The notes under the pieces are model-generated. The model did not search any database. It was not told the origin of the DNA and was given only the letters and a program-made list of their open reading frames with translations. Position numbers and translations under genes: made by a program. A stretch of 64,000 nt of DNA from Nitrospirota bacterium (lineage in GTDB: Bacteria; Nitrospirota; Thermodesulfovibrionia; SZUA-242), in NCBI GenBank assembly GCA_027021335.1, contig JALUUO010000016.1, positions 1,776-65,775 on the forward strand, in the 5' to 3' direction. Positions 1-25,558 of this stretch are shown piece after piece (within the stretch, counting starts at the first letter, position 1; each line of letters starts with the position of its first letter).

Positions 1-960
1 GATATCATTCTCGTCTGTCTGGCTGTCACAATCATTATCAATGCCGTCGTCACAGACCTCTCTTGCCTCTGGATACCTTGCCGGATCGTTATCGTCGCAG
101 TCGCCGGCGCACCATGCTACACCATCACCATCTGCGTCCACATCAGTGGATGGCCTGGCTCCGTCACAGTTTGAATCCTTGCCGTCGCAGATCTCAACAG
201 CGCCTGGATAGACACTCGAGTCATTGTCGTCACAGTCTATAGGACCGCACGCCCCACCTGAAGTTGAATATCCGTCTCCGTCCACGTCTGTTTCCACGCA
301 GGTAAGGCAATTTGGATCTGTTGCACAAGATGAATAATCAGCGCAATCGCTAAGCCCGTCGCAGTTGTTATCCTTGCCGTCACCGCATAGCTCGATAGCT
401 CCTGCATACACATCAGGATCACTATCATCACAGTCGTCACCACCACAAATCGTTAATGAATGTCCGTCACCGTCGTTATCCGGACAAACACATCCTGCCT
501 CATCCAGGCTACCGTCGCAGTTGTTGTCTTTATTGTCTCCACAGATTTCAATGTTGCCGGGATATACTGATGCATCAAAATCGTTGCAGTCGGGCGGATT
601 GTCACAGAGCCTTACTCCATCTCCGTCTGGGTCTCTTTCGTTATAGGGCAGTATACCGTTACAGTCGTCATCAATTTTATTACATAGCTCTACCGCGCCG
701 GGATATCTCGCCGGATCGTTATCATCGCAGTCGCCGGCGCACCATGCTACACCGTCACCATCAGCATCCACGTCAATAAATGACTGATATCCGTCACAGT
801 TTGAATCCTTACCGTCACAGATCTCGGCTGCATTTGGATGTACTTTGGCATCCTGATCATCACAGTCGGTCTGGCTCCCGTTTAAGCAACTTGTATCTCC
901 GGGGTTGCCGTAGCCGTCTTGATCGATGTCAATACACTGCGCCCGAAGATTCGGAGCCCA
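1..960. repeat. Direct repeat copy 1. 960 bp are identical to 2817..3776 and cover the MopE-repeat coding region of the two tandem paralogs
   Basis: Base-by-base comparison of lines 1-960 with 2817-3776. Identity ends at ...ttcggagccca (about 960 and about 3776), after which the sequences diverge. Confidence 0.85.
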
Positions 961-1033
961 CATGCATAAAACAAAAACAGCCCACAACATTATGCTTGAA
1001 TACTTTAGTAGACTTTTTAATAGAGTTTTCATG
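1..1033 (-). CDS. Partial CDS (N-terminal about 344 aa; C-terminus lies beyond the window start). Secreted protein with MopE-like Cys/Asp-rich metal-binding repeats, paralog of the next gene and probably also a multiheme cytochrome
   Basis: Minus-strand ATG at 1033 preceded by GGAGG RBS. Translated N-terminus MKTLLKSLLKYSSIMLWAVFVLCMWAPNLRAQCIDIDQDGYGNPGDT... matches the N-terminus of the 1050..3827 protein. nt 1-960 are identical to nt 2817-3776. Confidence 0.6.
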
Positions 1034-1049
1034 AATTCTCCTTCCTTTT

Positions 1050-3827
1050 TTAACGGCGGCGTCCGGTACGTCGTCTGTCTCCCCCCATGCGCGGTGGTTG
1101 AAATCCACGCTCATGTTTATGACACATTGTGCAATCTCGTCCTGAATTATGTGCCTGACCGCCTGGGGCTGTTCCGTCGGCCTGATGATGATTTGTTTGA
1201 GTGTGGCATGTATTACATATGTAGTTTTCCGTGGACATGTCATCCGGACGATCTATCAGATCATAGGCAAAACTGTAGGGTCCTGTCCTGGCTTCGAACA
1301 CCACCGGGGTTCCGCGAACCAGACTGCGTATAAATGCCAGATTTATATTATTGCGGAAATTGACCTGTTGTCTCATCGGGTTGTGGCACTCGACGCAATT
1401 GAGAGAGGCTAGTTGGCCGGTATATGGATCTACGTATTTGTCACTGTAATGGGCTATAACTTTGATATCAGAACCGCCGTTCTGGGCATTCGGACTATCA
1501 GCTTTATGACAACCGTAGCATTTGCTGTTGTCGATAGGAGAGTCAAAGACAGCATCCACTATATCCCCGTTTTCATCCGCCGTGTGACATACCACGCAAT
1601 CAAAAACATTATGAGGAGGAGGAGGTTGCGTCGGTAGGAAGGCGTTACTATGTGAATGACAGTTAGTACACTTTTTACCGTCATTGTGTCCTATATAACC
1701 GAATTCGTCATTATCCGCAGGCGCGCCTCCATCATAGTGATGATGGTTGGTTATGGTATGACAGGTTTCACATACGTTTTCATTGTGAGGAGGGCCATCT
1801 GCAAACGAATCCTCTCCCTGATGGCTTGTGAAAACTATATTGCTATCCGGTATGACACTACCTGAAAGAGTTGATCGTATAAGCTTTATATTTGTTTGTT
1901 CGAACATGGGATTATGACAATCCACACAGGAATTGTTGTAGATATATTTGCCAGATCCGTTTTCCGAGGTGTGGGCAAGCACATCCGGCGCTTCCGGAAA
2001 GCTATCTTTTAATATGCCTAAAGGCGTATGGCACTGCTTGCATTTTGCACTTGGTATTTCAGCACTGTAATCAATAATTCCGTTCCAGTCATCCATGTGA
2101 CAATAGTTACAGTTACTCAGGAAATCCTCTGTATTATGCGGCGGCTGGGGTGTTGCTCCTGCCGGTGAGAAACCTGCGGAGTGGAGATGGCACTCAGTGC
2201 ATTTTTTGCCGTCATTATGCGACTGTCCACCCGGGGCTGTTCCGTCGTTTTGGTGATGATTGGTTCGGGTATGGCAGGTTTCGCATATGTTTTCATTATG
2301 AGGAGGACCGTCTGCAAACGAGCCCGGACCTTCACCGGCCGTAAATTCAACATAGCTTTCGTTATGTTTACCAGTGGCTTGGTTGTCTAAACAGATATAT
2401 TCTTTAATAAGCTTGCCGTATGATGTCCCGTACTTACGGTTCTGCTCCTGTTGGTGAGGGTTGTGACAAGTTACACAATGCATATCCCAGTCTCCATACT
2501 TGGTTCCCAGTGTCAACGAGGAGTGAACCTTTACGTTTGGAGCAGAGCCGAAGCCGTAGGGAAAAGGATCTGGATATTGTGCTTTTAGCACTCCGTTTAG
2601 AGGATCAGATGTGTCAGCCGGATCTGCATGACAACGTTGGCATTGATAGTTTCCGCCCGGTACCGCATTGCCTTCCGCATCTTTATAATGACACTTGCCG
2701 CAGCGCAGCTCTGTATTGTCAGGGTGCAGGGATTCGTCCGGATTAAGCAGGTCAGCCAGATGCGGCGGGTCTTTTGGTGTTGTTTTGGTTCCGCAGGTCG
2801 GTGGACCGCAGTCGGCGATATCATTCTCGTCTGTCTGGCTGTCACAATCATTATCAATGCCGTCGTCACAGACCTCTCTTGCCTCTGGATACCTTGCCGG
2901 ATCGTTATCGTCGCAGTCGCCGGCGCACCATGCTACACCATCACCATCTGCGTCCACATCAGTGGATGGCCTGGCTCCGTCACAGTTTGAATCCTTGCCG
3001 TCGCAGATCTCAACAGCGCCTGGATAGACACTCGAGTCATTGTCGTCACAGTCTATAGGACCGCACGCCCCACCTGAAGTTGAATATCCGTCTCCGTCCA
3101 CGTCTGTTTCCACGCAGGTAAGGCAATTTGGATCTGTTGCACAAGATGAATAATCAGCGCAATCGCTAAGCCCGTCGCAGTTGTTATCCTTGCCGTCACC
3201 GCATAGCTCGATAGCTCCTGCATACACATCAGGATCACTATCATCACAGTCGTCACCACCACAAATCGTTAATGAATGTCCGTCACCGTCGTTATCCGGA
3301 CAAACACATCCTGCCTCATCCAGGCTACCGTCGCAGTTGTTGTCTTTATTGTCTCCACAGATTTCAATGTTGCCGGGATATACTGATGCATCAAAATCGT
3401 TGCAGTCGGGCGGATTGTCACAGAGCCTTACTCCATCTCCGTCTGGGTCTCTTTCGTTATAGGGCAGTATACCGTTACAGTCGTCATCAATTTTATTACA
3501 TAGCTCTACCGCGCCGGGATATCTCGCCGGATCGTTATCATCGCAGTCGCCGGCGCACCATGCTACACCGTCACCATCAGCATCCACGTCAATAAATGAC
3601 TGATATCCGTCACAGTTTGAATCCTTACCGTCACAGATCTCGGCTGCATTTGGATGTACTTTGGCATCCTGATCATCACAGTCGGTCTGGCTCCCGTTTA
3701 AGCAACTTGTATCTCCGGGGTTGCCGTAGCCGTCTTGATCGATGTCAATACACTGCGCCCGAAGATTCGGAGCCCAGACTACCAGAACTAAAATACAACT
3801 CAGAAGTAGCTTTAAAAAAAACTTCAT
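1050..3827 (-). CDS. Secreted fusion protein: N-terminal MopE-like (DxDxDGDG / CxxDCDDxDxxxxPGAxExCdGxDnDCdG) putative metal-binding repeats plus a C-terminal multiheme c-type cytochrome with 15 CxxCH motifs
   Basis: The ORF track shows a 932-aa ORF. The likely true start is MKFFLK at 3827 with a GGAGG RBS, followed by a signal peptide. I counted 15 CxxCH motifs: CGKCH, CQRCH, CVTCH, CETCH, CTECH, CNYCH, CKQCH, CVDCH, CETCH, CTNCH, CVVCH, CYGCH, CVECH, CNTCH and CTMCH. The module FADGPPHNENxCETCH...HNDGKKCTxCH is triplicated. Confidence 0.75.
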   Translation of the reverse strand: MKFFLKLLLSCILVLVVWAPNLRAQCIDIDQDGYGNPGDTSCLNGSQTDCDDQDAKVHPNAAEICDGKDSNCDGYQSFIDVDADGDGVAWCAGDCDDNDPARYPGAVELCNKIDDDCNGILPYNERDPDGDGVRLCDNPPDCNDFDASVYPGNIEICGDNKDNNCDGSLDEAGCVCPDNDGDGHSLTICGGDDCDDSDPDVYAGAIELCGDGKDNNCDGLSDCADYSSCATDPNCLTCVETDVDGDGYSTSGGACGPIDCDDNDSSVYPGAVEICDGKDSNCDGARPSTDVDADGDGVAWCAGDCDDNDPARYPEAREVCDDGIDNDCDSQTDENDIADCGPPTCGTKTTPKDPPHLADLLNPDESLHPDNTELRCGKCHYKDAEGNAVPGGNYQCQRCHADPADTSDPLNGVLKAQYPDPFPYGFGSAPNVKVHSSLTLGTKYGDWDMHCVTCHNPHQQEQNRKYGTSYGKLIKEYICLDNQATGKHNESYVEFTAGEGPGSFADGPPHNENICETCHTRTNHHQNDGTAPGGQSHNDGKKCTECHLHSAGFSPAGATPQPPHNTEDFLSNCNYCHMDDWNGIIDYSAEIPSAKCKQCHTPLGILKDSFPEAPDVLAHTSENGSGKYIYNNSCVDCHNPMFEQTNIKLIRSTLSGSVIPDSNIVFTSHQGEDSFADGPPHNENVCETCHTITNHHHYDGGAPADNDEFGYIGHNDGKKCTNCHSHSNAFLPTQPPPPHNVFDCVVCHTADENGDIVDAVFDSPIDNSKCYGCHKADSPNAQNGGSDIKVIAHYSDKYVDPYTGQLASLNCVECHNPMRQQVNFRNNINLAFIRSLVRGTPVVFEARTGPYSFAYDLIDRPDDMSTENYICNTCHTQTNHHQADGTAPGGQAHNSGRDCTMCHKHERGFQPPRMGGDRRRTGRRR
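2817..3776. repeat. Direct repeat copy 2 (see 1..960)
   Basis: Identical ORF-track entries 237..446 vs 3053..3262 and 365..646 vs 3181..3462 (offset 2816). Confidence 0.85.
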
Positions 3828-3883
3828 GACTCCTCCATAGTGACGCATAATAGGGTGTTTTTTTGTTTTAGGTTACTTTTAGG

Positions 3884-5623
3884 TTAATAGCTGAAACCCC
3901 GATGATTGCGTCCATGGCACCGCAAGTAGCATCTGCCTTTGAATGTTCCTAAGTCTTCGAATTTTAACTCACCACTCATTCTTTCAGGAGAAACAACGGA
4001 TGTGTCAAAATTGATAAGATGTGCGTTATTAACAGCATTCCCCTGAGAACTGCTTATGCCGTGAGGGTCGTGACATATTGCACATGGCGCGTTTTGTCTT
4101 ACTATATGAAAGTAGTGCCTGGCAAAACTTTCGTTGCCCAGTATGCTGTTTCTGTCGTGGCACTTATAACATAGCGCGTAGTTGTCAGGGCTTTCACTTG
4201 TGTAATCATTCATTATGTATTGCCTTTCAAGAAGGTAAGGATTTTGTGAGCCGTGAGGTCCTGCCGGGCCTGACCCTCCGGCCCCGGGGCCATTGTTATT
4301 GCTGTGACAGTCGGTGCAGTAGATGACACTGGCTGTTGTGTATCCAGGCAGAAGACTTGGAACGTTTGGGTTTCGTCCAGGCCCTTCGACCGGATGGTAT
4401 GCCGGGTTACTTAAATCAAACTGAAGCCGTCTGTTTAACTGACGTATCTGTCTTGGCACCGCTGTTGTACCCTCGGCGCTGTCTCCATGACATTTAAAAC
4501 ATATCTCATATTGGTAAGAAGCTGTTTTTACGGGCACTCCCTGGGCATTTACTCCGGTTACTCCCATTTGCACGCCTTTTACGTTTGGGGCGCTTGCCTC
4601 TGAACTGTTCACCTGGTGGGGGTTATGGCAATCCATGCATTCCACGTGTCTTTGTACTGTCAGAAAATTTTCTTTTGGTTCATGAATTCCGGCTGTACTG
4701 GCCACAGGATGAAAGGAAAGTTTTGAAAACTGGCTCTCGATATTCAGGGCAGCCACATTCCCATTATGACAAGGGAAACAATTGTTTTCTTCTGCATACT
4801 CATTAAGCAACCTTTCTTGACTGCCGGCGCTGTGTGGACGGTGGCAGTTTTCACATGCATTTTCTGCGACAGTAGTCCATTCGGTATGTTTCCATGGATC
4901 TGGAGCTATTCCGTTCCAAGTGGACGTAGAAAGATTATGCGAGCAGGAAGACCATCCTGTTTTCTGATGGCACTTAAGGCATAAAGCCGATGATGAATTG
5001 ACCACTCTAAGAAACTTACCATTGGCGTTGTTATGTGGGTCATGGCATGAAATACACTGTAACTCATTGTTTTTATCCAGCTTGACTTCATCGATAAGCA
5101 GTGAAGGGTTTTTGAATTCAGGGTTTACTATCGAAAGATAGCTGTCATATACAAAAGAGATAGGATGATCGTCCGAAAGGTCACTGGTAAGTGCTGCTGG
5201 ACCTGAATCCAGGTATCGTTGTGTCATATCGATTTCAAGTAGTCTGGAGCCGAGATCACCTAATGCTATGGTTCCGTCATGACAAGTCAAGCAGAGCCTT
5301 GAAGCACCTGTTGGCTGTCCGATGTTTGTCTGAATTGTTGTGCTGCTATAAGGTATGTAGGTGGCGGTAGAGTCCCGCTTATTCCATAACAGCCCCACTC
5401 CTTGCGCTTTGTGCGGTGTGTGGCAGAAAACGCATACTTCGCCTTCACTTATAGCTTTTATGGTTCCCGGGCCGGAAACCGAAAGATTGTGCTTGGAATC
5501 CACGACACTCATTGATGAGGCCGGCAGAGCTGACAGCAGGAGGATCAGCGGCACGGCAACATAAAACAACCATGTTGTATTAGATGAATTTATGAATTTT
5601 TTATATATATACGGTCTCTTCAT
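3884..5623 (-). CDS. Multiheme c-type cytochrome (11 CxxCH plus one CxxxCH), secreted
   Basis: 579-aa ORF with an N-terminal hydrophobic segment. Motifs: CVFCH, CLTCH, CISCH, CLKCH, CENCH, CFPCH, CMDCH, CFKCH, CTDCH, CYKCH, CAICH and CYLRCH. Confidence 0.8.
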   Translation of the reverse strand: MKRPYIYKKFINSSNTTWLFYVAVPLILLLSALPASSMSVVDSKHNLSVSGPGTIKAISEGEVCVFCHTPHKAQGVGLLWNKRDSTATYIPYSSTTIQTNIGQPTGASRLCLTCHDGTIALGDLGSRLLEIDMTQRYLDSGPAALTSDLSDDHPISFVYDSYLSIVNPEFKNPSLLIDEVKLDKNNELQCISCHDPHNNANGKFLRVVNSSSALCLKCHQKTGWSSCSHNLSTSTWNGIAPDPWKHTEWTTVAENACENCHRPHSAGSQERLLNEYAEENNCFPCHNGNVAALNIESQFSKLSFHPVASTAGIHEPKENFLTVQRHVECMDCHNPHQVNSSEASAPNVKGVQMGVTGVNAQGVPVKTASYQYEICFKCHGDSAEGTTAVPRQIRQLNRRLQFDLSNPAYHPVEGPGRNPNVPSLLPGYTTASVIYCTDCHSNNNGPGAGGSGPAGPHGSQNPYLLERQYIMNDYTSESPDNYALCYKCHDRNSILGNESFARHYFHIVRQNAPCAICHDPHGISSSQGNAVNNAHLINFDTSVVSPERMSGELKFEDLGTFKGRCYLRCHGRNHRGFSY

Positions 5624-5673
5624 AGCCTTTTTGGACCTCCTTGTTTTTCGGTTACATATTCCAACTTCTTAGG

Positions 5674-6735
5674 TTATTCCTTCACGTACTGGAAAACCTG
5701 TATTCTTTGGTTAAATGAATCGGATACATATATGCGGTCGTTACTGTCAATTAAAATGCCTGCAGGTAAATAGAACTCGCCCGGTTTACGGCCTGGAGTT
5801 CCAAAATAAAGCAGAGCATGCCCTTTGGGGTTGAATATCTGAATATTGTTGAATTCTGCATCAACCACATATATGTGGTTGTCACTGTCCACAGCTATGC
5901 CTCTTGGCTTGGAAAACGCTCCGGGGCCGTCGCCTGCTATACCGAAACTACTTAGAAAACCGCCGTCATTACCAAAAATCTGAACTCGGAAGTTCATAGA
6001 GTCTGTAACATACAGGTTTCCTTTAGTATCCAGACATATATTTGTAGGGTAATTAAATTCACCAGGCTTCTCTCCACGTTGACCTAAGTCAAATAACAGC
6101 TTTCCATTAGTACGGTTATAAACACGTATTTTATGCGCCATGGTATCAACAACATAAAGTTTTTCAAGCAGGCTGTCTACGACCAGACCGGTAGGCCTCA
6201 TGAATTCACCAATTGTTGTTTCCAGCAATCCATCTCGGTTAAATACATAAACCTTCTTTGCCACAGAGTCTGATACATATATTTTCCCATCCTCGGCCAC
6301 ATCTACGTCGATTGGGGAAAGGAAAACCATATTATCTTTTTTGGCAGGGATCTGACGGTATTTACCGTCCGGCAGATGAAATATATGTACTAACCTGCCT
6401 CCTGTGTCAACAATAAGAAGATTATCTTTTTTATCCAAGGCTAACCCGTATGGACGGATAAGCAAAGGCATATTTTTACCTAAAAACAGTTCTTTAACCC
6501 GATTTAAAAAGCCTGTGCTTTTAGATATATCCCTTGGAAAGTTTATCTCTCTTTCAAAAACTATCCTTGCCTTTTGTGGTGGCGGTGGCCATGTGATGGC
6601 CTGACTGTTTTTTTCTTTTTGCTGGAGTTGAGTTGTTTCAGAACATCCTGCAAAAAAAGCGCTTACGAGTATTAACATGCAGAAGATCTTTATTGCCGGA
6701 AAAAACGAAAGCCTGGCTGTTTTTGAAATTAACAT
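5674..6735 (-). CDS. NHL-repeat (six-bladed beta-propeller) lipoprotein
   Basis: Repeated NHL-type motifs: LYVTDSMNFRVQIF, IYVVDAEFNNIQIFNPKG and IYVSDSFNQRIQVF. The lipobox-like segment is AFFAGCSE. The ORF track extends the ORF to 6843, overlapping the upstream gene, so the start is taken at the internal Met (MLISK...) about 6735. Confidence 0.7.
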   Translation of the reverse strand: MLISKTARLSFFPAIKIFCMLILVSAFFAGCSETTQLQQKEKNSQAITWPPPPQKARIVFEREINFPRDISKSTGFLNRVKELFLGKNMPLLIRPYGLALDKKDNLLIVDTGGRLVHIFHLPDGKYRQIPAKKDNMVFLSPIDVDVAEDGKIYVSDSVAKKVYVFNRDGLLETTIGEFMRPTGLVVDSLLEKLYVVDTMAHKIRVYNRTNGKLLFDLGQRGEKPGEFNYPTNICLDTKGNLYVTDSMNFRVQIFGNDGGFLSSFGIAGDGPGAFSKPRGIAVDSDNHIYVVDAEFNNIQIFNPKGHALLYFGTPGRKPGEFYLPAGILIDSNDRIYVSDSFNQRIQVFQYVKE

Positions 6736-6745
6736 CAATTGTGTT

Positions 6746-8716
6746 TTACCTCCTGCTTCCAAAGAGCCTTCGAGCTCTGAGGTAGATGCGCTCACGTTTT
6801 TCTTTTCCAATGGTTGTTTCCTGGTTTCGATTAAGGTTTTCATAGGTTAAGGTTATATCCAAAGTTCTGTAGCGCCAACGTAAATTAGTACGGAAGTTGA
6901 ATGAAACCTGTTTTTCACCCACAAGTTCCTGGTTGCGGTACTGTGTTTCAATATCACACTTTGCTCTGTATGGAAGGAATAAAAACAACTTTGCGGAAAC
7001 TGTACGGTCGATTGAATCCTCAATATACTCGAATGTGGATGTTTCAGAGTAGCTGGCGTTTAGATTTAAAACAGGGTTGAAATATCGTAAATTTTTTAAT
7101 CTGAAAATGAGGACTTCGGAGTATTTTGTGGTTTTATATGGATTTCTAACAGACTTATGAATAGTTTTTTCTGCTCTGGTTGTTGAATTTTTCCACTTTA
7201 TTTCAGTGCCGAATGACTTGTCTCTTATATCTTCAAGCCTGCCGATATCGTTTCCGCCTTTTAGCGATTGATCAGAACTGCCCGCATAGTAAAATACCCT
7301 CCAAGCCCTTTTTATATCCAGTTGTCCCCCATAAGTTTGAGTTCGCGTTTCGAATTCGATTGGAGGAGTAGGTTCAAAGTCGTAGCTTATATAAACTGTC
7401 TTACCTAACAGAAAATCTCCATATGCCGGTAAGAGTCTTATTTTGGTAAGTGTTCCGGATTTTTCCAGTCTGTAGTGAAGCCCTTCTTCAATAGGAAGTC
7501 CGGTTACTGGATCGGTGATCTCAAGGCTGTCTTTATCCTCTATTTTAATTGTCGCCTCATCTACAAGATCCCGTTTTAGAAGAATTACATCATCGCCCTC
7601 CGGGTTTTCTCCAAAAAAATGTTCTTCTCTTGAAATGTGGCTTTTGTCTTCAGAAAAGTTTTCATCTGTGTTTTCTATGAAAGTACGGTAGTTGAGAGTC
7701 AGCCTGCCAAAAGAAAGGCGTTTACGGTAATTGAAACGTAATTCTGCAGAAAGTGTATCTTTTTTGCCTGAGTTTAATGTGTAATTTTCTCCGTTTAGTT
7801 CGACACCTGTACTAAGGCTTTCATAAAGTTGGTGTTTCAGGCCGGCGCGGTACCGGTGTTGTTTTGTCACTTTGCCTACCAGCCTGGAATCCTCATAGTC
7901 GTAACGATAGTAGGAATCAAGGTTTTTTGTATGTCTAATATAGATGTTTTCTCCTACTGTAATATCTCTGTATGGAATTGTGCCTGTCTGGTCTCGCCAG
8001 CGAAACAGGCTTGTCAATGCATGCTGCTCTTTAGAACCGAAGTGGTAAGTGTTTGAGGCATTGACCAGATCTGTCTGTAAATCCAGATGTGCCACAGCTT
8101 GGGACCTTCTTTCGTTTTCATACCTTAAGGTACTTGTCCCTAGCATGCCTTCGTTACGAATGCTCAGGTATGCTCTGTTAAGTTTGTCATTGGTTTTGTC
8201 CTGTCCCTCTCCAACAGAGCTCAGCGTGTCATAACCAAGGTCTGTAGGAAACAATTTATGCCGGTAATGAAGAGCAACCCCTTTTTGGGTGGTAGTGAGA
8301 CGTTGGCTTTCGAAAAAACTGCTGTTTGTATCCTGAGTGTTTCTGTTTGCAAGCAGGGTCATTGATATGGGATGAGACTTTAAAATAAGCATTGATAGGT
8401 TGTAATCAGTGTACTTGTCTCTTAACTCCTGCTGAAACTGCATATTGGATGTTTCAGACTCCTGCTTGAAAATAAACTTCGTGTCGGCTTTGAATTCGAG
8501 AAGGCGTGGGTGATAGACGTAGCCATCCACGCCCAATCCCAGTTCTTCAAATAATGCTTCGTCCAGTTCTTTAATAGGCATGTTCGTCCGCAAATTTTCG
8601 CGGTAATCATTTTCCCGCTCAGCTCCAAGTCCGATAAAACCTCCTAGTCTATTAAAACTGACTGAAGTGATAGGGGTAGTCTGGTTTTGGGCCTGTAATA
8701 AAGGAACCTGTAACAT
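6746..8716 (-). CDS. Hypothetical beta-rich protein, possibly an outer-membrane beta-barrel/porin-like component of the cytochrome cluster
   Basis: 656-aa ORF rich in Y/R/N/T/S with alternating-residue segments typical of beta-barrels. In-frame upstream translation (…KRFKIAIITCFYII-MLQVPLLQA↓QNQ) reads like a signal peptide, but I found no canonical start codon upstream. Confidence 0.5.
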   Translation of the reverse strand: MLQVPLLQAQNQTTPITSVSFNRLGGFIGLGAERENDYRENLRTNMPIKELDEALFEELGLGVDGYVYHPRLLEFKADTKFIFKQESETSNMQFQQELRDKYTDYNLSMLILKSHPISMTLLANRNTQDTNSSFFESQRLTTTQKGVALHYRHKLFPTDLGYDTLSSVGEGQDKTNDKLNRAYLSIRNEGMLGTSTLRYENERRSQAVAHLDLQTDLVNASNTYHFGSKEQHALTSLFRWRDQTGTIPYRDITVGENIYIRHTKNLDSYYRYDYEDSRLVGKVTKQHRYRAGLKHQLYESLSTGVELNGENYTLNSGKKDTLSAELRFNYRKRLSFGRLTLNYRTFIENTDENFSEDKSHISREEHFFGENPEGDDVILLKRDLVDEATIKIEDKDSLEITDPVTGLPIEEGLHYRLEKSGTLTKIRLLPAYGDFLLGKTVYISYDFEPTPPIEFETRTQTYGGQLDIKRAWRVFYYAGSSDQSLKGGNDIGRLEDIRDKSFGTEIKWKNSTTRAEKTIHKSVRNPYKTTKYSEVLIFRLKNLRYFNPVLNLNASYSETSTFEYIEDSIDRTVSAKLFLFLPYRAKCDIETQYRNQELVGEKQVSFNFRTNLRWRYRTLDITLTYENLNRNQETTIGKEKRERIYLRARRLFGSRR

Positions 8717-8853
8717 TATTATATAAAAGCAGGTGATAATTGCTATTTTAAATCTTTTTACTATGTTGCACCTCGTACATCACGTATTGAATTATTTTTT
8801 GTTTATACTTCGCTGATAAAACCATTAAAAACCATTAAAATATTAAACCGGCC

Positions 8854-9504
8854 TCACTCTGTTTTAAGCATAAAACGGGCCTGGCTTCCATGAGGGTCAT
8901 GACACTCTGTACAGGCTGTATCGTCTATTTCCTCATGAATCACTGTTTTTAAAAGTCGATTTTCGTTGTGGCATTTAAAGCAGAGCTTCTGAATAGGCCA
9001 GATCTGCAGCATATACGGGTTTGCGGTTTCATGAGGATGATGACACTCCAAGCAAGCCCCGAATTGAACAGGTGCATGTACCCATGCAAAAGTTTTGCCC
9101 AAATCCTCTTGTGACATATAGTCATGACATCTAAGGCAAATTCTGAGTTTTTTATCTAAAAGGGTGAAACCAACCGGAGCTGCAATAGTCCTTTTTGTTG
9201 TCTGGTGGCATCCATAACACATTTTTACGGCATATGGTGGATGTTGAACCGTTGTAGGAGACAGCTCTACCGGAGCTTTAGTTTGATCCTGGGTGTTTCT
9301 TTTAGCGGCGGTATTAAATTCTTTCCGGTCGGTCGGTTTGATCTCCGGTGGTGTGTCAGTTGTTTTTTTTGTCTTTTGTATTGGCGGAACGCCATCGAAA
9401 AAAAAGGATAAAACACGGTGTTTCGTCATCTGGTCACAACCCTGTAGCATAAAAAAGGCTATGAAAATTGCCGCTATCAAAGTCAATATTTTTTTTTTGA
9501 TCAT
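8854..9504 (-). CDS. Pentaheme c-type cytochrome lipoprotein
   Basis: 216-aa ORF. Signal/lipobox MIKKKILTLIAAIFIAFFMLQGC. Motifs: CYGCH, CLRCH, CLECH, CFKCH and CTECH. Confidence 0.8.
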   Translation of the reverse strand: MIKKKILTLIAAIFIAFFMLQGCDQMTKHRVLSFFFDGVPPIQKTKKTTDTPPEIKPTDRKEFNTAAKRNTQDQTKAPVELSPTTVQHPPYAVKMCYGCHQTTKRTIAAPVGFTLLDKKLRICLRCHDYMSQEDLGKTFAWVHAPVQFGACLECHHPHETANPYMLQIWPIQKLCFKCHNENRLLKTVIHEEIDDTACTECHDPHGSQARFMLKTE

Positions 9505-9505
9505 G

Positions 9506-10699
9506 CTATTTTGTCTTTTTATTTTTTAACGCTTTTGGAGCTCCTGACCCATGTTTTTTACCATATTCTTTCTGATTCTCAACTTCCCCTTTTGCAAGGG
9601 GGCTTCCTTCTCTTGCATTACCAAATCCATAAATATTGATGTATGGCGGTCCGTATTGGCTTGTGACTAAAATCAGGTGTTCTAAAATGAAATCATCATG
9701 GCTGAGCGAATTAAAATAAGACAGCAGGCTTTTGTCTGTTGTAATTCCGGCTGGAAGCCAGAGAGCTCCGGGCACCATGGCGTCTCCCCATCCACCAAAG
9801 AAGAGAGCCGGTTTTCCCTCTGCTGTGAATATTTGAACATTTTCAAACGCTGAATCGACGACATAGATGAAACCTTTATCATCAACAGCAACTCCCTTTG
9901 GCCTGGCAAAGGTTCCAACAGCATCTCCGCATTGTCCAATAACAAGGAGGACATTTCCATCCGGGTCAAACTTCTGTATTCTGCAGTTGAGCGTGTCCGA
10001 AACGTAAAGATTTCCATCTTTGTCAATTGTTAGATTTGTCGGGTGATAAAACTGTCCTTCGTCCTGTCCAGGATCACCGATAATGCTTAAACGTTCTCCG
10101 GTTTTTTTATCCAGGACTTCAACTTCATGGTCTCTTGAATCAGCAACATACAACTTATCCCCAAAGACGGCAACATCAGTCGGCTTAAACTGTTCTTTAT
10201 TGCCAAAAGCCCGCTTGAAATTATTATCCTTATCAAACACAACGACCTGGTGGCGGTCATAGTCGGCAACATATTTTGTCCCGTTTTTATCAAAAGCAAT
10301 ATTTATAGGGCGAATTAGATTTCCGGCTCCCTGGTCGTGAAACCAGTCAAACTTGTTGTTTACAACGTCAATAACCATGACAGTTCCGAACTGGACGTCA
10401 CATACATAGATAATACCGTTATACACTTCTATTCCGTAAGGTTTCCCAAAGTTTCTAACGCTTTCTCCTCCAACAACAAAGGTTTCGAATGCGGAGCGTT
10501 TCTCTACATCCCTGGAAGATGAGATACGTTTAAGAAACTGTACTTTTGGCGGTTGAGGCGGAGGTGGAAAGAACCTGGTGCCAAGTTTTTGCCCGGTTGT
10601 TGCGCATCCACTCATAAGCAGAAGGGTAGACAGGCATGTAACCATTAAATAAAAGGGTGTAACAGTATGTGAAAGGAACTTTATAACTATGGTTTGCAT
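9506..10699 (-). CDS. NHL-repeat beta-propeller lipoprotein, paralog of 5674..6735
   Basis: NHL-type motifs: IYVCDVQFGTVMVIDV, YVADYDRHQVVVFDKD, LYVADSRDHEVEVLDKK, LYVSDTLNCRIQKFDPDGN and IYVVDSAFENVQIF. Lipobox LLLMSGC. Confidence 0.75.
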   Translation of the reverse strand: MQTIVIKFLSHTVTPFYLMVTCLSTLLLMSGCATTGQKLGTRFFPPPPQPPKVQFLKRISSSRDVEKRSAFETFVVGGESVRNFGKPYGIEVYNGIIYVCDVQFGTVMVIDVVNNKFDWFHDQGAGNLIRPINIAFDKNGTKYVADYDRHQVVVFDKDNNFKRAFGNKEQFKPTDVAVFGDKLYVADSRDHEVEVLDKKTGERLSIIGDPGQDEGQFYHPTNLTIDKDGNLYVSDTLNCRIQKFDPDGNVLLVIGQCGDAVGTFARPKGVAVDDKGFIYVVDSAFENVQIFTAEGKPALFFGGWGDAMVPGALWLPAGITTDKSLLSYFNSLSHDDFILEHLILVTSQYGPPYINIYGFGNAREGSPLAKGEVENQKEYGKKHGSGAPKALKNKKTK

Positions 10700-10791
10700 G
10701 CTCTTTCCTCCGGCTTTAATGTGCTTTATAATATATTGATTTTATTCAGTAATGTAAACTTTATTGCCAAAAAAAATCAAGGCATTATTTT

Positions 10792-10831
10792 GCCGAAAAA
10801 AAGCCCTGCGCTCTTAATCGGGGCACAGGGC
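10792..10831 (-). terminator. Rho-independent terminator or attenuator on the minus strand, immediately after the first cytochrome gene
   Basis: Minus-strand sequence GCCCTGTGC-(loop 12 nt)-GCGCAGGGC forms a 9-bp stem including one G-U pair, followed by TTTTTTT. Confidence 0.5.
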
Positions 10832-10858
10832 CATAAATATGGTTGCTACAAATGCTAT

Positions 10859-11569
10859 TTATTTTATATGACAGGTTAGGCAAAGTCCGCTGGCTGTTCC
10901 ACCTTGATTCGCTGATTGAGCTACTCTCAACAGGTGAGTGTTAGGAACGGACTCCTGGTCATGGACGTCATGGCATGAACTGCACTGTACCCTGCCGTTG
11001 TCCAGAACATCTGAGATGGTTCCTGAGAGCCCCATAACCCTGGTTGTCGGATCCCAGAGATTTGGATCAGCTACATTATTATATTCAATAGATATCGGAT
11101 GAGTGTTGCTCATGTTTTTGTCGCCGCTTACGTCCGGGATGCCGGGTATCTGGAACTGGCCGCCTGCAAAGCTGTCAATATAAATTGATCCGCTATTTCC
11201 GTCAAACTGATCAATGCCTATTGTTCCATCGTGGCAGCCCAGGCAGAGCTTCGAAACACCCATGGGTTCAGGTTCGGCAGCGCCGTCTATGAAGTTGGCA
11301 TGACTATCCTCCGCATACATAAGATAGGTAGAGGAGCTTAGATCGTGGTTCCATAAAAGTCCGAAATCAGCTCTGTTACTGCCGAAATCATGGGGTACAT
11401 GGCATACACGGCATATTTCACCGCTGGTATTCCATGTTCTATCGCTAAAATCATGAGGAGATCCAACAATTCCTGCTCCGTTACCTTCTGCAAAAGAGAT
11501 GGTTGCAGTCATGCCTATTACCATTATTGCTGTACAACACAATGTAGCTAATTTTTTCATTTGTAACAC
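10859..11569 (-). CDS. Tetraheme c-type cytochrome, secreted. First gene of the operon
   Basis: 236-aa ORF. Signal peptide MLQMKKLATLCCTAIMVIGMTATISFA. Motifs: CRVCH, CLGCH, CSSCH and CLTCH. Confidence 0.8.
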   Translation of the reverse strand: MLQMKKLATLCCTAIMVIGMTATISFAEGNGAGIVGSPHDFSDRTWNTSGEICRVCHVPHDFGSNRADFGLLWNHDLSSSTYLMYAEDSHANFIDGAAEPEPMGVSKLCLGCHDGTIGIDQFDGNSGSIYIDSFAGGQFQIPGIPDVSGDKNMSNTHPISIEYNNVADPNLWDPTTRVMGLSGTISDVLDNGRVQCSSCHDVHDQESVPNTHLLRVAQSANQGGTASGLCLTCHIK

Positions 11570-11734
11570 CTTCCCTTAACTTAGTATTTAATTTAAAATT
11601 TATTTTGAAACTATATATGTATTTCTTAAATATTTTTACGTAAAATTAAAATATTATCAGAACCCTTCACCTCCTTTATTTTTATTAAAAACTATCCCTC
11701 CAAAATATTTTTATAGTTGATTTGCTTTTGTAAC

Positions 11735-11750
11735 TGCAATTACCGGGCCA
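11735..11750 (-). promoter_or_regulatory. Candidate sigma-54 (RpoN) -24/-12 promoter driving the cytochrome/NHL operon
   Basis: Minus-strand sequence is TGGCCCGGTAATTGCA, against the consensus TGGCAC-N5-TTGCW. There is one mismatch and the spacing is exact. It lies about 165 nt upstream of the ATG at 11569. Confidence 0.5.
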
Positions 11751-11859
11751 TGATTGGGTTTATCAGGTGACCTGCTAGAAAGCCTTGCTATAATTAAGAT
11801 AATTATAGAGAGTTTGATTGTTGTTAATGATCGGGAAAGAAAAGAAGTGCGTGTTATTT

Positions 11860-11893
11860 CCCACCAACTGAGCCAAAGCGCTCAGTTGGTGGG
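11860..11893. promoter_or_regulatory. 14-bp perfect inverted repeat (CCCACCAACTGAGC-N6-GCTCAGTTGGTGGG). Candidate enhancer-binding-protein (UAS) site or terminator hairpin
   Basis: Perfect palindrome read directly from the sequence. It is centred about 130 bp upstream of the sigma-54 candidate and about 60 nt downstream of the stop of the upstream cytochrome gene. Confidence 0.45.
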
Positions 11894-11955
11894 TGTAAGT
11901 AAAGGTCTTTTGTGCCGCTTATTTTCAGGATAAGAAGTGGTTTTCGACCCCAGAT

Positions 11956-13359
11956 TCAACGATTTTTCACAGCTTTTTCCCTGTTATACTTTCTTGGAAA
12001 GTGACATGCTGGTGCGCATCCGCCGCCGTTGTCATCTATCTTGAAGTTAAGTGGAAACTGCCATTTACCGAATTTTGTGATTTCCCTGATATGCTTTGGC
12101 CCTTTAGATCCATGGATATCATGACATACAACACATCTTCGTCCCTTTTTGGGGTCTTTCTTAACATGAACGTAATGGAGATTGGTTGTTCCGTTTCTAA
12201 AACCGGTGCTCTCGGATGTCTCCTTTTCTTGAACGAGTTCCTCATCATGGCAGCCGAAACATAGGCTATACTTTTCCGGCGCAAACTTGGTGTAAAACGT
12301 GGATGGAAACGCTCTGCGTAACATTCTCCATTCGTTTGAGCCATGAGGATTGTGGCAGGCGGCACAATCACCATCCATCAAAATCGGACCATGAAGTTGC
12401 GGGCGCTCTTTAAGCCATCTTTTCATGTTTATTAGTCTGCCTTTGTCGGTTTTTATTGCACGGTTATGACACTTCAGGCAGAGGTCCATAGTCTCCTCGG
12501 CTTTGAGCTGCTTTGGGAAATCTGATGCGTGTGGATCATGGCAGTTTACGCAGCTTCCCTCGGCCTGGATGGCTCCGTGTGGGGTCTTTACCTGTGTTAT
12601 ATGTTCTTCTTTATCCGAATGGCAGCCATAGCATAGCTCTGGTGGTGATAGAAGGAGTTGGTATTTATTTTCGGTGCCGTGTGGACTATGACATCCGGTG
12701 CACCCAACCATCTCAATGGCTGCGTGGACATACTTCTTGGTTGTAATTGCCTCTTCTTTATCGACATGGCACATAAGACAGACATCTTTGCCTTCAGCAG
12801 GCAGCCGGAAAGGATAGGGGGACTCGTGTGGATCGTGACATATTGTGCACTCTCCTGCTGCCACAGGAGCATGAACATATTTGTGTGTAGTTTTATCATC
12901 CTCATGACAGTTAAAGCAAAGCTTGCTGACCGGAGAGTCTAAAAGTTGATATGGGTTGGGTGATTGGTGAGGACTGTGACACATGGTACAGTCTCCGGAT
13001 GCCACCGGTACATGAACCTCTTTTTGAGTGTTTTTCGGATCATGACACATGTAGCACAAGACGTCACCGGTATCGATAACTTTAAATTTATTGTCTTTTG
13101 TAAGTTCATGACATACCGTGCAGTCCCCCATGGCAAAGGCGGCGTGAACATAGCCGTCTGGTGGAGGGGTGGCAAGATCTTTGTGACATTTAAAGCAGGT
13201 TGCAGGGTTTGAAGCATCAAGTCCTGCATGGCCGGCTTCAGCTGAAAAAGCAGCTTGTGGACTAAAGAGGAAAAGCCGGGAAATAAGTATGCCGGCAAAG
13301 ATAATTAAAGTTTTTTTCAAAAAGTGGTTATTGTTTAGATAATATTTTGGATACAGCAC
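11956..13359 (-). CDS. Multiheme c-type cytochrome (14 CxxCH plus one CxxxCH)
   Basis: 467-aa ORF starting at GTG. The likely real start is TTG at about 13321, giving MKKTLIIFAGILISRLFLFSPQAAFSA. Motifs: CFKCH, CTVCH, CYMCH, CTMCH, CFNCH, CTICH, CLMCH, CTGCH, CYGCH, CVNCH, CLKCH, CAACH, CFGCH, CVVCH and CAPACH. Confidence 0.8.
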   Translation of the reverse strand: MLYPKYYLNNNHFLKKTLIIFAGILISRLFLFSPQAAFSAEAGHAGLDASNPATCFKCHKDLATPPPDGYVHAAFAMGDCTVCHELTKDNKFKVIDTGDVLCYMCHDPKNTQKEVHVPVASGDCTMCHSPHQSPNPYQLLDSPVSKLCFNCHEDDKTTHKYVHAPVAAGECTICHDPHESPYPFRLPAEGKDVCLMCHVDKEEAITTKKYVHAAIEMVGCTGCHSPHGTENKYQLLLSPPELCYGCHSDKEEHITQVKTPHGAIQAEGSCVNCHDPHASDFPKQLKAEETMDLCLKCHNRAIKTDKGRLINMKRWLKERPQLHGPILMDGDCAACHNPHGSNEWRMLRRAFPSTFYTKFAPEKYSLCFGCHDEELVQEKETSESTGFRNGTTNLHYVHVKKDPKKGRRCVVCHDIHGSKGPKHIREITKFGKWQFPLNFKIDDNGGGCAPACHFPRKYNREKAVKNR

Positions 13360-13702
13360 TCCTGACCTCGTTTACCTGAAAAGGTTTATTAATAAAAGTA
13401 GTGACTCCGGCTCTTTTCGCTTCTTCTTTATCTAGCAGCGAATCGTATGCTGTCATCATTATAATTTTTGTGCTTGGTTGTAGTTCCATGGTTTTTTTCG
13501 CCACTTCTATGCCGTCGCAATCGGGCATGACAAAGTCGGTTATGATTACATCAAAATGTTTCTGTTTTATTTTTTCTATGGCTTCGGTTCCGTCCGAGGC
13601 CGAGACAACGTTGAATTTATCTTTGCCCATGGACTCTTGAATGGACCACCTCACAAGTTTTTCATCATCCACAATGAGTAAATTCATTTTATCTCTCATC
13701 AT
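13328..13702 (-). CDS. Single-domain response regulator (CheY-like receiver)
   Basis: LLIVDDEKLVRWSI...DVIITDFVMPDCDGIEV...KIIMMTAYDS, with the receiver-domain Asp residues present. Confidence 0.8.
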   Translation of the reverse strand: MMRDKMNLLIVDDEKLVRWSIQESMGKDKFNVVSASDGTEAIEKIKQKHFDVIITDFVMPDCDGIEVAKKTMELQPSTKIIMMTAYDSLLDKEEAKRAGVTTFINKPFQVNEVRSAVSKILSKQ

Positions 13703-13791
13703 GGCCTTGTTTATATGACTTTAGAGGGGTATCCATGTTTAGTTATATGCAATATCAATGCCACATGTTTTGCCCCTCCGTTTTTACCCGC

Positions 13792-15162
13792 TCAGAGAAG
13801 GTAGTATTTTTTCATGCGATATCTAAGGGCGTCTCTGCCCATGCTGAGCAGCTTTGCAGCATGGACCTGATTGCCATGTGCCGCTGCGAGAGCTTGTTGA
13901 ATAAGCTCTTTTTCGACCTCTTCAAGTGAAACGCCTTCAGAGGGAAGGCTGACGGTAGAGCTTGCCGCGCTTAACGCCTTTTCAGGTTGAGTGATTTCGA
14001 TAGGCAGGTGCTCAGGCAGAATAACCTCTTCGTTTTCTAGGATGATTGCACGCTCTATCACGTTTTTCAGTTCACGCACATTTCCGGGCCAGCGATAGCG
14101 TAACATCATTTCTTCAGCTTTTTGAGAGATTCCTTGAACTTTCTTTTTGAAATCCCTGTTAAAAACATTTATGAAATGTTGAATCAAAAGCGGGATATCC
14201 TCTTTACGCTTACGCAGTGGTGGCAGGAATATTGGAAATACCTTCAGACGATAATATAGATCTTCCCGAAAAGTGCCTTTTGCAGAGGCTTCTTTTAAAT
14301 CTTCGTTGGTTGCGGCTATAATTCTGGCATTCACCACGGTCTCCTTTATACCGCCCAGGCGTTTGAATGATTTGCTTTCGATCACTCTAAGAAGTTTTGC
14401 CTGTGTACTCATAGGCATGGCTCCAATCTCATCAAGTAAGATTGTTCCGCTGTCAGCCAGTTCAAAAAACCCTTTTTTCATGGCCTTTGCATCTGTGTAG
14501 GCGCCTTTTTCGTGGCCGAAGAGTTCACTCTCGATAAGGGTTTCTGGAAGAGAAGTGCAATTAATTTCCAGGTAAGGGTTTTCTGCTCTCTTGCTCTGGT
14601 AGTGAATCGCCTTGGCGATCACATCCTTTCCCGTCCCGCTTTCTCCTTGCAGAAGCACTGTTGTTGCATCACTCTTGGCTATTTTTTCAACCATTTCGAA
14701 TACATTTTTCATGGCCTCAGTCTGCCCTACGATGTTTTGCATTCCGTAAAGGCTTTTCTGCTGATTCTTAAAGACATGGACTTCCTTTTTTAGGCTTACA
14801 GTTTCGAGAGCCTTGGAGATAGTTATCTTCAATTTCTCAAAATTAAAAGGTTTTTCGATGAAATCATATGCTCCAAGCTTCATGGCTTTTACCGATGTAT
14901 TGACGTCTCCGTACGCAGTCATCATTATAACCAGCGAATCTTCACGCAGTTTCTTTACCTTTTCCAGGATTTCTATTCCATCGGCTCCTGGAAGTTTGAT
15001 ATCTTGAAGAATAAGATCAGGACGTTCCTGTTCTATGATTTCCATGGCTTCCTCTCCGCTGTTTGCGGTCAGAACTTCGTAGTCTTCCTTCTGCAGGTTT
15101 TCTTTAAGAGACCAGCAGATTAATTTTTCATCGTCCACTACCAGGATGGTTGCTTTAGACAT
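13792..15162 (-). CDS. Sigma-54-dependent transcriptional response regulator (NtrC/AtoC family: receiver, AAA+ sigma-54 activation and Fis-type HTH domains)
   Basis: ILVVDDEKLICWSL...; Walker A GESGTGKDVIAKAIH; GAYTDA motif; C-terminal HTH AAHGNQVHAAKLLSMGRDALRYRMKKY. Confidence 0.85.
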   Translation of the reverse strand: MSKATILVVDDEKLICWSLKENLQKEDYEVLTANSGEEAMEIIEQERPDLILQDIKLPGADGIEILEKVKKLREDSLVIMMTAYGDVNTSVKAMKLGAYDFIEKPFNFEKLKITISKALETVSLKKEVHVFKNQQKSLYGMQNIVGQTEAMKNVFEMVEKIAKSDATTVLLQGESGTGKDVIAKAIHYQSKRAENPYLEINCTSLPETLIESELFGHEKGAYTDAKAMKKGFFELADSGTILLDEIGAMPMSTQAKLLRVIESKSFKRLGGIKETVVNARIIAATNEDLKEASAKGTFREDLYYRLKVFPIFLPPLRKRKEDIPLLIQHFINVFNRDFKKKVQGISQKAEEMMLRYRWPGNVRELKNVIERAIILENEEVILPEHLPIEITQPEKALSAASSTVSLPSEGVSLEEVEKELIQQALAAAHGNQVHAAKLLSMGRDALRYRMKKYYLL

Positions 15163-15165
15163 TTC

Positions 15166-15528
15166 TTAACTATGCTCCTTTGTATATCTGGCAATATACT
15201 CCGCTAGGAGTTTCCGGCAGTGCTCATCACACTTTGTAAACCGGATACCTTTGCCAAAGACGGATTTTCCCCCTTTTTCAGCTTCTCCGGACCAGACTAC
15301 TTGCCCGGATATCCGCAACGGTTTTATTCCTCCAGGAGGGAGTGAAAATTCAAGTTGTATCTCGGTGCCTATTCCCATAGGAATGTCTGTTTTTATAAAA
15401 ATTCCCCCCTCTCCTATATTAACCGCTTCCACCTCATATACTTCCTTTCTTTCTTGCTGTCGTACCCAGTATGTTACAATAATCGACAGCGGTACACGCA
15501 GTGATAACCTTTTTTCCCTAAAGCTCAT
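15166..15528 (-). CDS. PilZ-domain protein (c-di-GMP-binding type)
   Basis: RLSLRVPL...(RxxxR) and ...VNIGEGGIFIKTD (DxSxGG-like). The start is taken at the internal MSFREK to avoid overlap with the upstream kinase. Confidence 0.55.
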   Translation of the reverse strand: MSFREKRLSLRVPLSIIVTYWVRQQERKEVYEVEAVNIGEGGIFIKTDIPMGIGTEIQLEFSLPPGGIKPLRISGQVVWSGEAEKGGKSVFGKGIRFTKCDEHCRKLLAEYIARYTKEHS

Positions 15529-15541
15529 ATGTCTAATCTTG

Positions 15542-17256: not shown

Positions 17257-17778
17257 ATGAAGATGAAAACCTGGATGGTAATTGTGATGGCTGCGATGTT
17301 GGCGTTTGCAGTAGCAGATGGTGTAGATGCTGCTGATTATGTGGGGGTAAAAAAATGTAAGATGTGCCATATGAAACAGTACAAAAGCTGGAGCAAAACC
17401 AGAATGTCAAAGGCTTTTGAACTTCTGAAACCGGGCGTCGCAGCAGAGGCCAAGAAGGCTGCAGGTGTAGACCCAAACAAGGACTATACTGCAGATGCTT
17501 CGTGCCTGGGATGCCACACGACCAATGGAAAAGCTGATATGCCTGGTGTTCAGTGTGAGGCTTGTCACGGTGCTGGATCGGACTTCATGAAAGTCATGAT
17601 GACCAATCGGAACTATAAGCGTGAGGATATTAAGAAGAAGGGGTTGAATCCGGTGCCTGATGAAGCTGTATGTAAGAAGTGTCATAACAAGTCGAGTCCG
17701 TTTTATAAAGAGTTCAATTATGCTGAGCGTGTAAAAAAAGGAACACACGAGCACTTTCCGTTGAAAAAGCAGCATTAA
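17257..17778 (+). CDS. Tetraheme c-type cytochrome (c3/c7-like), periplasmic
   Basis: RBS AAGGAGGGG. Signal peptide MKMKTWMVIVMAAMLAFAVA. Motifs: CKMCH, CLGCH, CEACH and CKKCH. Confidence 0.8.
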   Translation: MKMKTWMVIVMAAMLAFAVADGVDAADYVGVKKCKMCHMKQYKSWSKTRMSKAFELLKPGVAAEAKKAAGVDPNKDYTADASCLGCHTTNGKADMPGVQCEACHGAGSDFMKVMMTNRNYKREDIKKKGLNPVPDEAVCKKCHNKSSPFYKEFNYAERVKKGTHEHFPLKKQH

Positions 17779-20920: not shown

Positions 20921-20967
20921 TCCGGTGTATAAACGGTGCGGTTTGAGATTTTGACACTTTAAACGAG

Positions 20968-23463: not shown

Positions 23464-23476
23464 AGGAGTAATACGA

Positions 23477-25556: not shown

Positions 25557-25558
25557 AA

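Follow-up and report, generated by a model that had tools for sequence, protein, structure and literature searches.

OmcE nanowires are encoded in clusters that contain, in their minimal form, OmcE itself, a large beta-barrel and two each of multiheme cytochromes and beta-propeller lipoproteins; the 2025 preprint that describes them names the anchoring and wiring of such filaments across the outer membrane as a question still to be answered (10.1101/2025.10.22.684050). Here we describe a cluster of the same general kind on the minus strand of a 64,000-nucleotide stretch of DNA from a Nitrospirota bacterium (assembly GCA_027021335.1, contig JALUUO010000016.1), which we call the window; positions are window positions throughout, and loci fetched for comparison carry labels such as L001 and L002. 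A second related system, undecaheme electron transfer (Uet), was described in 2022 in the Tenderiales and is known from Ca. Tenderia electrophaga and some Gallionella. It comprises the tetraheme UetA, the peptidyl-prolyl isomerase (PPIase) UetB, the 28-strand barrel UetC, the NHL proteins UetH and UetI and the undecaheme UetJ (10.1101/2022.05.06.490989). For the D. ferrophilus genes DFE_448-451 and DFE_461-465, propellers were proposed in 2018 to stabilise an outer-membrane cytochrome complex (PMC5815863), and the island also encodes a pentaheme lipoprotein, six-bladed propeller lipoproteins and a PPIase (PMC8322314). In SEEP-SRB1 the core operon encodes two cytochromes together with a propeller and a PPIase (PMC5539420). 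Neither NHL proteins nor propellers are mentioned in PMC11475568 and PMC11434368. A preliminary description of the window locus had taken the pairing of NHL propellers with multiheme cytochromes for an undescribed architecture; this pairing has been published for D. ferrophilus, for uetH/uetI of Ca. Tenderia and for omcE clusters, and the architecture is of an already described and widespread kind, not a new one.

The window cluster is very probably a relative of the OmcE, Uet and D. ferrophilus clusters that acts as a module for extracellular electron transfer. The module had been proposed in general terms in the preliminary description, and OmcE and MtrA homologies, the barrel and the conserved gene order all speak for it. 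Its core is a cassette of six genes in the order tetraheme cytochrome, NHL-A, pentaheme lipoprotein, barrel, NHL-B and 11-CXXCH cytochrome (Table 1), so that one conserved unit joins an OmcE-like subunit, an OmcE-headed putative 12-heme protein, a barrel larger than MtrB and two propeller lipoproteins. All parts of the minimal omcE cluster, a type known from Geobacter and Desulfuromonas (Petersen et al. 2025), are found in the window (two cytochromes, two propeller lipoproteins, an OmcE-like protein and a barrel). Among the products of the G. sulfurreducens omcE locus, the NHL lipoprotein matches window NHL-B (3e-57) and NHL-A (4e-44), the 9-heme cytochrome matches the window 14-heme protein (2e-70) and OmcE itself matches the head of the 11-CXXCH cytochrome (4e-29) and the tetraheme (4e-14). 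In omcE clusters and window alike, the OmcE-type gene has its own terminator and the barrel is very large and without a Pfam family. Geobacter-type omcE clusters differ in gene order, stand beside resB/ccsB and in many cases have glycosyltransferases after them. On these sequence comparisons the window cassette is a sister type of the omcE cluster.

By part list, and compared from its published description, Uet is the closest system. Shared are a tetraheme, a barrel of about 28 strands and two NHL genes, one of them beside the 11-CXXCH cytochrome, and the window cassette type also occurs in Gamma- and Betaproteobacteria. Uet differs in its gene order and in having three triheme c7 proteins and a cupredoxin (UetDEFG) instead of the pentaheme lipoprotein and 14-heme cytochrome of the window; domain searches of window positions 1-17000 found no triheme c7, cupredoxin or PPIase. 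The D. ferrophilus IS5 island (DFE_0448-0451, DFE_0461-0465) was likewise compared from its published description: besides the pentaheme lipoprotein, propeller lipoproteins and PPIase named above it holds a 14-heme cytochrome and predicted extracellular multiheme cytochromes, and no large barrel is reported for it. The preliminary description had pointed to the porin-cytochrome (Pcc) conduits of Geobacter. With MtrCAB and Pcc systems the cluster does share an MtrA-like periplasmic multiheme cytochrome and a large barrel, with MtrB as its best structural match. In contrast to them, its barrel has 28-30 strands instead of 26 and no MtrB_PioB match, an MtrC-type lipoprotein decaheme is lacking (the putative 12-heme protein has no lipobox), and NHL lipoproteins and an OmcE-like subunit are added. 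Since the tetraheme is an OmcE homolog, which that comparison had missed, OmcE/Uet-type clusters and not Geobacter Pcc provide the best comparison.

OmcE-like modules, barrel and partner proteins

The tetraheme aligns over its full length with OmcE of D. soudanensis (bundle structure 9yuq_N, E=9.4e-12) and of G. sulfurreducens (filament structure 7tfs_A, E=2.8e-10). All four CXXCH motifs are conserved with respect to both solved proteins, and residues H39, H60, H157 and H203 align with the distal histidines of both. In OmcE, one of the distal histidines ligates a heme of the neighbouring subunit. When family profiles were compared, the tetraheme family matched the OmcE family (80 sequences) with an hhalign probability of 100% (E=7.5e-49, 208 columns). 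As judged by these alignments the tetraheme is a full-length, though distant (E~1e-10), homolog of the OmcE nanowire subunit, and it may be a polymerising extracellular subunit.

A complete OmcE-like tetraheme module also makes up residues ~27-221 of the 11-CXXCH cytochrome, corresponding to its first ~190 residues. This module is closer to OmcE than the free tetraheme is (E=9.4e-25 with 7tfs_A and E=1.2e-21 with 9yuq_N; probability 100% and E=5e-49 with the OmcE-family profile), and the tetraheme and the N-terminus of the 11-CXXCH protein share 30% identity (E=1e-23). With a CX3CH motif near its C-terminus that none of 51 homologs lacks, the protein is likely to bind 12 hemes. It has at least 7343 homologs at E<=1e-20, which occur among others in organisms named as iron oxidisers, and its identity among the 120 best-scoring homologs is 53-68%. 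We also compared its segments as three possible tandem OmcE modules; hhalign gave probabilities of 93-97% between segments and, for these segments, 97-98% against the unrelated 14-heme family, and since the latter scores alike the inter-segment signal may be no more than generic multiheme similarity.

The 656-aa protein, a putative barrel in the preliminary description, can be assigned confidently to the outer-membrane barrels from its predicted structure. The AlphaFold2 model, made with 14 homologs, reached a mean predicted local distance difference test (pLDDT) score of 88.2 and consists nearly entirely of long antiparallel strands, about 28-30 in number, between which residues ~368-447 form a small beta domain of their own as an insertion. 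A Foldseek search of the PDB returned barrels only; MtrB was the best match by aligned length and template modelling (TM) score (0.39-0.40), followed by LptD and usher barrels, the FimD usher included. The window barrel ends in a C-terminal signal of the RRxF type, and homologs carry signal peptides and an RRxF-type C-terminal motif. No Pfam or NCBIfam match was obtained for the barrel, and none to MtrB_PioB (PF11854). Its family comprises 2938 cluster representatives at E<=1e-3 and 1753 at E<=1e-30, with identity among homologs down to about 19-25%, and a plasmid search with the barrel gave no match.

Read from the annotated ATG (8716), the window copy of the barrel appears without a signal peptide, and no ATG, GTG or TTG in the start region (8716-8775) would give it one. 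An in-frame ATA lies at 8764, 16 codons upstream of the ATG, and is preceded by GAGGTG at Shine-Dalgarno distance; translation from this codon recovers a signal peptide, (M)VKRFKIAIITCFYIIMLQVPLLQA before QNQ. A second assembly has bases identical to those of the window at this site. In an 83%-identical relative (L023, 1160-1430) the GAGGTG, the ATA and a signal-peptide-like frame are kept, there is no canonical start for some 80 codons and an out-of-frame ATG runs directly into TAA. A 1-nt frameshift error in the A5 run at the barrel start was considered and rejected because of the identical second assembly and the retention of GAGGTG and ATA in L023, where the upstream ATG is followed by TAA. 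It is probable that translation starts at the non-canonical AUA (8764), which would perhaps limit barrel synthesis.

NHL-A and NHL-B share 32% identity (E=6e-52). They fall into distinct, position-specific orthologous groups and on this evidence are ancient paralogs of each other; together with the kinship of the tetraheme and the N-terminus of the 11-CXXCH protein, this bears out the preliminary view that a cytochrome-NHL module occurs twice. NHL-A, NHL-B and the pentaheme protein have lipoprotein signal peptides and the remaining cytochromes ordinary Sec signal peptides. Lipoboxes were counted in 11 of 22 homologs of the pentaheme protein, 11 of 20 of NHL-A and 15 of 21 of NHL-B, using starts of the longest open reading frames, which hide further lipoboxes. 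Both the 14-heme protein (E=2.9e-16) and the pentaheme lipoprotein (E=1.9e-9) resemble MtrA (6r2q_A) in sequence. The 14-heme protein further gave a partial TIGR03508 match (151.7 bits, below the 192-bit cut-off) and a partial match to the GSU2203 family, and Pfam MtrC/MtrF domain II/IV matches were found on cluster cytochromes.

The heme part of the 932-aa MopE protein consists of three ~5-heme repeats and has no relative in the PDB. The two MopE genes are tandem paralogs, 100% identical over about 960 nt (1-960 and 2889-3848), differences being confined to the signal peptide, and the independent second assembly (L001) ends inside this repeat. The identity indicates a very recent duplication or gene conversion. 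A full-length MopE-15-heme counterpart at that position was found in 0 of 24 related loci, and weak MopE-repeat matches near the cassette in L002 and L004 only. As far as these loci tell, the MopE-15-heme genes are a recent lineage-specific addition outside the conserved cassette.

Conservation and transcription of the cassette

The preliminary description had named beforehand two tests that sequence can answer, a barrel fold of the 656-aa protein and a conserved gene order in related genomes, and both came out in favour of the module. The six-gene order recurs in 24 other loci, which were fetched via barrel or undecaheme homologs, so that each has the barrel and whatever part of the cassette its contig covers; the scan of genome collections was seeded with five close barrel sequences. 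These loci belong to Planctomycetota, Binatia, Hydrogenedentota, Thermoanaerobaculia/Acidobacteriota, Nitrospirota, Woeseia (Gammaproteobacteria), one betaproteobacterium and unclassified metagenome-assembled genomes, and at least seven of the lineages are distinct at phylum level. This recurrence argues that the grouping is functional and not due to chance. In related loci a 13-14-heme MtrA-like cytochrome lies near the cassette, about half have a kinase and/or a sigma-54 activator beside it, and a CheY-like receiver holds the same position in the three loci whose flanks extend there (L002, L004 and L006).

Two further observations concern the flanks of related cassettes. In the closest complete relatives the undecaheme gene is followed by a SurA-like PPIase (L002, 15643-16644; L004, 14996-15964), at the place where the window has its MopE-15-heme genes and reminiscent of UetB, DFE_0457 and OscH. 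In the Woeseia locus L028 a gene for an MtrB_PioB-family porin (11713-13023) directly adjoins the cassette, and two barrel types therefore coexist there.

The preliminary description had treated the region as a single large operon with tiny intergenic gaps. Two of the gaps are long (386 bp and 159 bp) and contain promoter- and terminator-like signals. Two sigma-54-type elements, each with one mismatch and in correct orientation, occupy the two places where they would be expected, both of them in long intergenic regions. In 128 kb (both strands) there are only five matches with one mismatch or none, and two of these fall within about 0.8 kb of cluster intergenic DNA. Of 17 other loci, 5 have an equivalent element before the gene for the tetraheme homolog, compared with a background rate of 0.04 per 400 nt. 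The terminator 3' of the OmcE-like gene gave a fold z-score of -2.8 (10690-10870); an equivalent terminator follows the tetraheme homolog in six related loci and true omcE in 3 of 3 Geobacter-type loci. A sigma-70-like promoter precedes NHL-A. Given these internal sigma-54- and sigma-70-like promoters and the terminator, the region probably forms at least three transcription units, and a single operon is an oversimplification. The OmcE-like gene, with promoter and terminator of its own, is probably an independently and highly expressed monocistron, an arrangement that fits a structural subunit required in excess.

Upstream of the activator gene, the histidine kinase (15542-17035, minus strand) carries one CXXCH (C150-F-R-C-H) in the loop that faces the periplasm, and could act as a heme-c redox sensor in control of the cluster. 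A kinase beside the cassette of L005 likewise has one CXXCH.

Gene layout and surroundings

On the minus strand, window positions 1-17035 are occupied by a run of co-oriented genes from the kinase, which comes first, to the MopE paralog, which comes last (Table 1). All genes listed in the preliminary description exist, but its ordered list omitted the 14-CXXCH cytochrome and the CheY-like receiver. Its count of more than 45 heme motifs agrees with ours: the five complete multiheme cytochromes, taken over complete genes, total 49 CXXCH and two CX3CH. An Rfam search of the window gave no match.

Table 1. Genes and regulatory elements of the cluster, in order of transcription
Feature	Position	Strand	Motifs or basis
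HAMP histidine kinase, 1 CXXCH in periplasmic loop	15542-17035	-	domain search
PilZ protein	15166-15528	-	domain search
NtrC-type sigma-54 activator	13792-15162	-	domain search
sigma-54-type -24/-12 element TGGCATTGATATTGCA	13748-13763	-	upstream of receiver/14-heme unit
Stand-alone CheY-like receiver	13328-13702	-	Pfam PF00072; overlaps 14-heme gene start
467-aa periplasmic cytochrome, MtrA/DmsE-like	11956-13359	-	14 CXXCH + 1 CX3CH
sigma-54-type -24/-12 element TGGCCCGGTAATTGCA	11735-11750	-	166 nt upstream of OmcE-like gene
OmcE-like tetraheme cytochrome, 233-236 aa, Sec signal peptide	10859-11569	-	4 CXXCH
Intrinsic terminator (GC-rich hairpin + U7)	10796-10830	-	directly 3' of OmcE-like gene
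NHL-A, NHL beta-propeller lipoprotein, lipobox LMSGC	9506-10699	-	Pfam
Pentaheme lipoprotein, 216 aa, lipobox LQGC, MtrA-like	8854-9504	-	5 CXXCH; Paired_CXXCH Pfam match
Outer-membrane beta-barrel, 656 aa annotated	6746-8716, probable start 8764	-	AlphaFold2 model
NHL-B, six-bladed NHL beta-propeller lipoprotein, lipobox FAGC	5674-6738	-	Pfam NHL + DUF5128
579-aa 'undecaheme' (probably 12-heme) cytochrome, Sec signal peptide, no lipobox	3884-5623	-	11 CXXCH + 1 CX3CH
932-aa secreted MopE-type protein	1050-3848	-	six MopE motifs + 15 CXXCH
Second MopE-repeat cytochrome, 5' part (344 codons), cut by window edge	1-1032	-	Pfam PF11617 x6

Beyond the kinase, a c554-like tetraheme cytochrome (17257-17778, plus strand) and a 440-aa ExtKL-like multiheme cytochrome (18756-20078, minus strand) flank a gene for a cyclic nucleotide monophosphate-binding protein, and a perfect TGGCAC-N5-TTGCA lies near the start of the ExtKL-like gene (20051-20066, minus strand). 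At 3 kb from the cluster, positions 20342-26839 of the plus strand encode a QrcABCD-like complex with a multiheme QrcA-like, a molybdopterin-family QrcB-like and an iron-sulphur QrcC-like protein and an NrfD/DsrP-like membrane subunit. The NCBIfam top matches of these genes are below cut-off; the complex plausibly links periplasmic cytochromes to the menaquinone pool. A 426-aa protein with four class-I cytochrome c domains comes after it. Farther away, a 1296-aa protein (41921-45811, minus strand) consists almost wholly of RCC1 repeats (17-18), and an island at 46000-51000 has low GC (34-39% as against ~45%) and carries genes for an NAD-dependent epimerase/dehydratase, UDP-galactopyranose mutase and family-2 glycosyltransferases. 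Glycosylation genes come after Geobacter-type omcE clusters; the window's low-GC island is 30 kb away and we draw no link to the cluster.

Proposed organisation and alternatives

Taken as a whole, we think it reasonably probable that the cluster works as an outer-membrane and extracellular module of the OmcE/Uet kind built on the conserved six-gene cassette. In such a module the MtrA-like 14/15-heme protein and the pentaheme lipoprotein would carry electrons between the periplasm and the 28-30-strand barrel. The NHL lipoproteins would be membrane-anchored scaffolds; docked on the barrel much in the manner of BamB on BamA, they would hold the cytochromes or chaperone them, a role in accord with published proposals for the D. 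ferrophilus and omcE clusters. A rod-like 12-heme cytochrome would occupy or cap the barrel and offer, through its N-terminal OmcE-like module, the same head-to-tail heme/histidine interface as the free tetraheme. The latter, produced in surplus from a gene with a sigma-54 promoter and a terminator of its own, would polymerise or dock outside the cell. The adjacent kinase and NtrC-type activator would switch the system on, and the two MopE-15-heme proteins would be lineage-specific surface additions. The direction of electron flow may lean towards uptake, in view of the Qrc-like quinone reductase nearby and of the iron- and cathode-oxidising relatives; true OmcE serves Fe(III) oxide reduction.

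A bolder version of this OmcE/Uet-type module casts the putative 12-heme protein as base or adaptor of OmcE-type filaments: its OmcE head would nucleate or cap the polymer via the heme/histidine interface, and the other eight hemes would thread the barrel, held by the NHL lipoproteins, to the MtrA-like cytochromes. We regard this version as speculative and rather unlikely. If true, this widespread cassette (thousands of homologs; seven or more lineages at phylum level; probably with Uet and the D. ferrophilus island among its members) would reveal the way in which cytochrome nanowires are attached to the outer membrane and wired through it.

Several points weigh against the OmcE/Uet-type reading in either version. 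The evidence for this organism consists of sequence comparison and predicted models. The tetraheme may be no more than a diverged OmcE homolog, and its polymerisation is something we infer. The AlphaFold2 model of the 12-heme protein is unusable (pLDDT 48), so that its rod shape and insertion into the barrel are likewise conjectural. Sigma-54-like matches are no more numerous in the window as a whole than in shuffled sequence, only their positions being telling, and the barrel gene is without a canonical start codon. Furthermore, Geobacter-type omcE clusters encode cytochromes with 8 and 9 hemes but lack an OmcE-headed 12-heme protein. Between the window barrel (~660 aa) and the ~750-aa (752-aa) barrel of G. 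sulfurreducens there was no hmmsearch match and the hhalign probability was 1%. The window barrel profile also finds neither the L026 nor the L027 barrel, and a barrel without detectable relationship and a missing undecaheme are seen as well in the Geobacter-type loci of Steroidobacteraceae and Rhodocyclaceae. Because the barrels show no detectable relationship and the undecaheme is absent there, the window cassette and the characterised omcE cluster are not orthologous.

The strongest alternative, essentially the view of the preliminary description, is a plain MtrCAB/Pcc-type conduit without a filament, which we consider unlikely. An MtrA-like cytochrome would thread the barrel, the 12-heme protein would be a surface terminal reductase or oxidase, the tetraheme only a loosely attached extracellular monomer and the NHL proteins accessory stabilisers. 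Such a conduit would account well for the MtrA homology of the 14-heme and pentaheme proteins, for MtrB being the closest large barrel by aligned length and TM-score and for the MtrC/MtrF domain II/IV matches. It accounts less well for the specifically OmcE-like tetraheme and undecaheme head, in which the four distal histidines are kept, including the set used in inter-subunit ligation, for a layout of subunit gene plus terminator common to true omcE, and for a barrel without MtrB_PioB match next to a 12-heme protein that, unlike MtrC, has no lipobox. Quite unlikely, in our estimate, is that the barrel and NHL lipoproteins are mainly an usher-like machine for secretion or assembly of extracellular cytochromes and not a permanent conduit. 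A 'secretion or anchor' role has been proposed for omcE clusters (10.1101/2025.10.22.684050), and PMC13194489, citing Shen et al. 2025, gives a proposal of usher-like OscEFG with OmcS; the FimD usher among the best Foldseek matches of the barrel and the SurA-like PPIase after the cassette in L002 and L004 point the same way. The two MtrA-like cytochromes conserved in or beside the cassette, however, fit a standing conduit, and the two roles are not exclusive. That the genes are mere neighbours without joint function, as the internal promoter- and terminator-like signals and the two long intergenic gaps might suggest, is extremely improbable given a six-gene order kept in 24 loci and at least seven phylum-level lineages at barrel identities down to 19-25%.

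For the window itself, the outcome is mainly the correct annotation of a known kind of system. Of most value beyond it are the OmcE-like head of the 12-heme protein, the un-modelled barrel family, the breadth of phyla and the probable AUA start. The cassette links three literatures that have been treated separately, those on OmcE nanowires, on Uet and on the D. ferrophilus island. Its compact genes, for example those of the ~660-aa barrel family without a Pfam model, could serve as markers for electroactive bacteria in metagenomes. The cassette may bear on how extracellular cytochrome filaments are secreted, anchored and electrically joined to the periplasm, and it is present in numerous uncultured lineages, some of them related to iron-oxidising, cathode-oxidising and corrosive bacteria.

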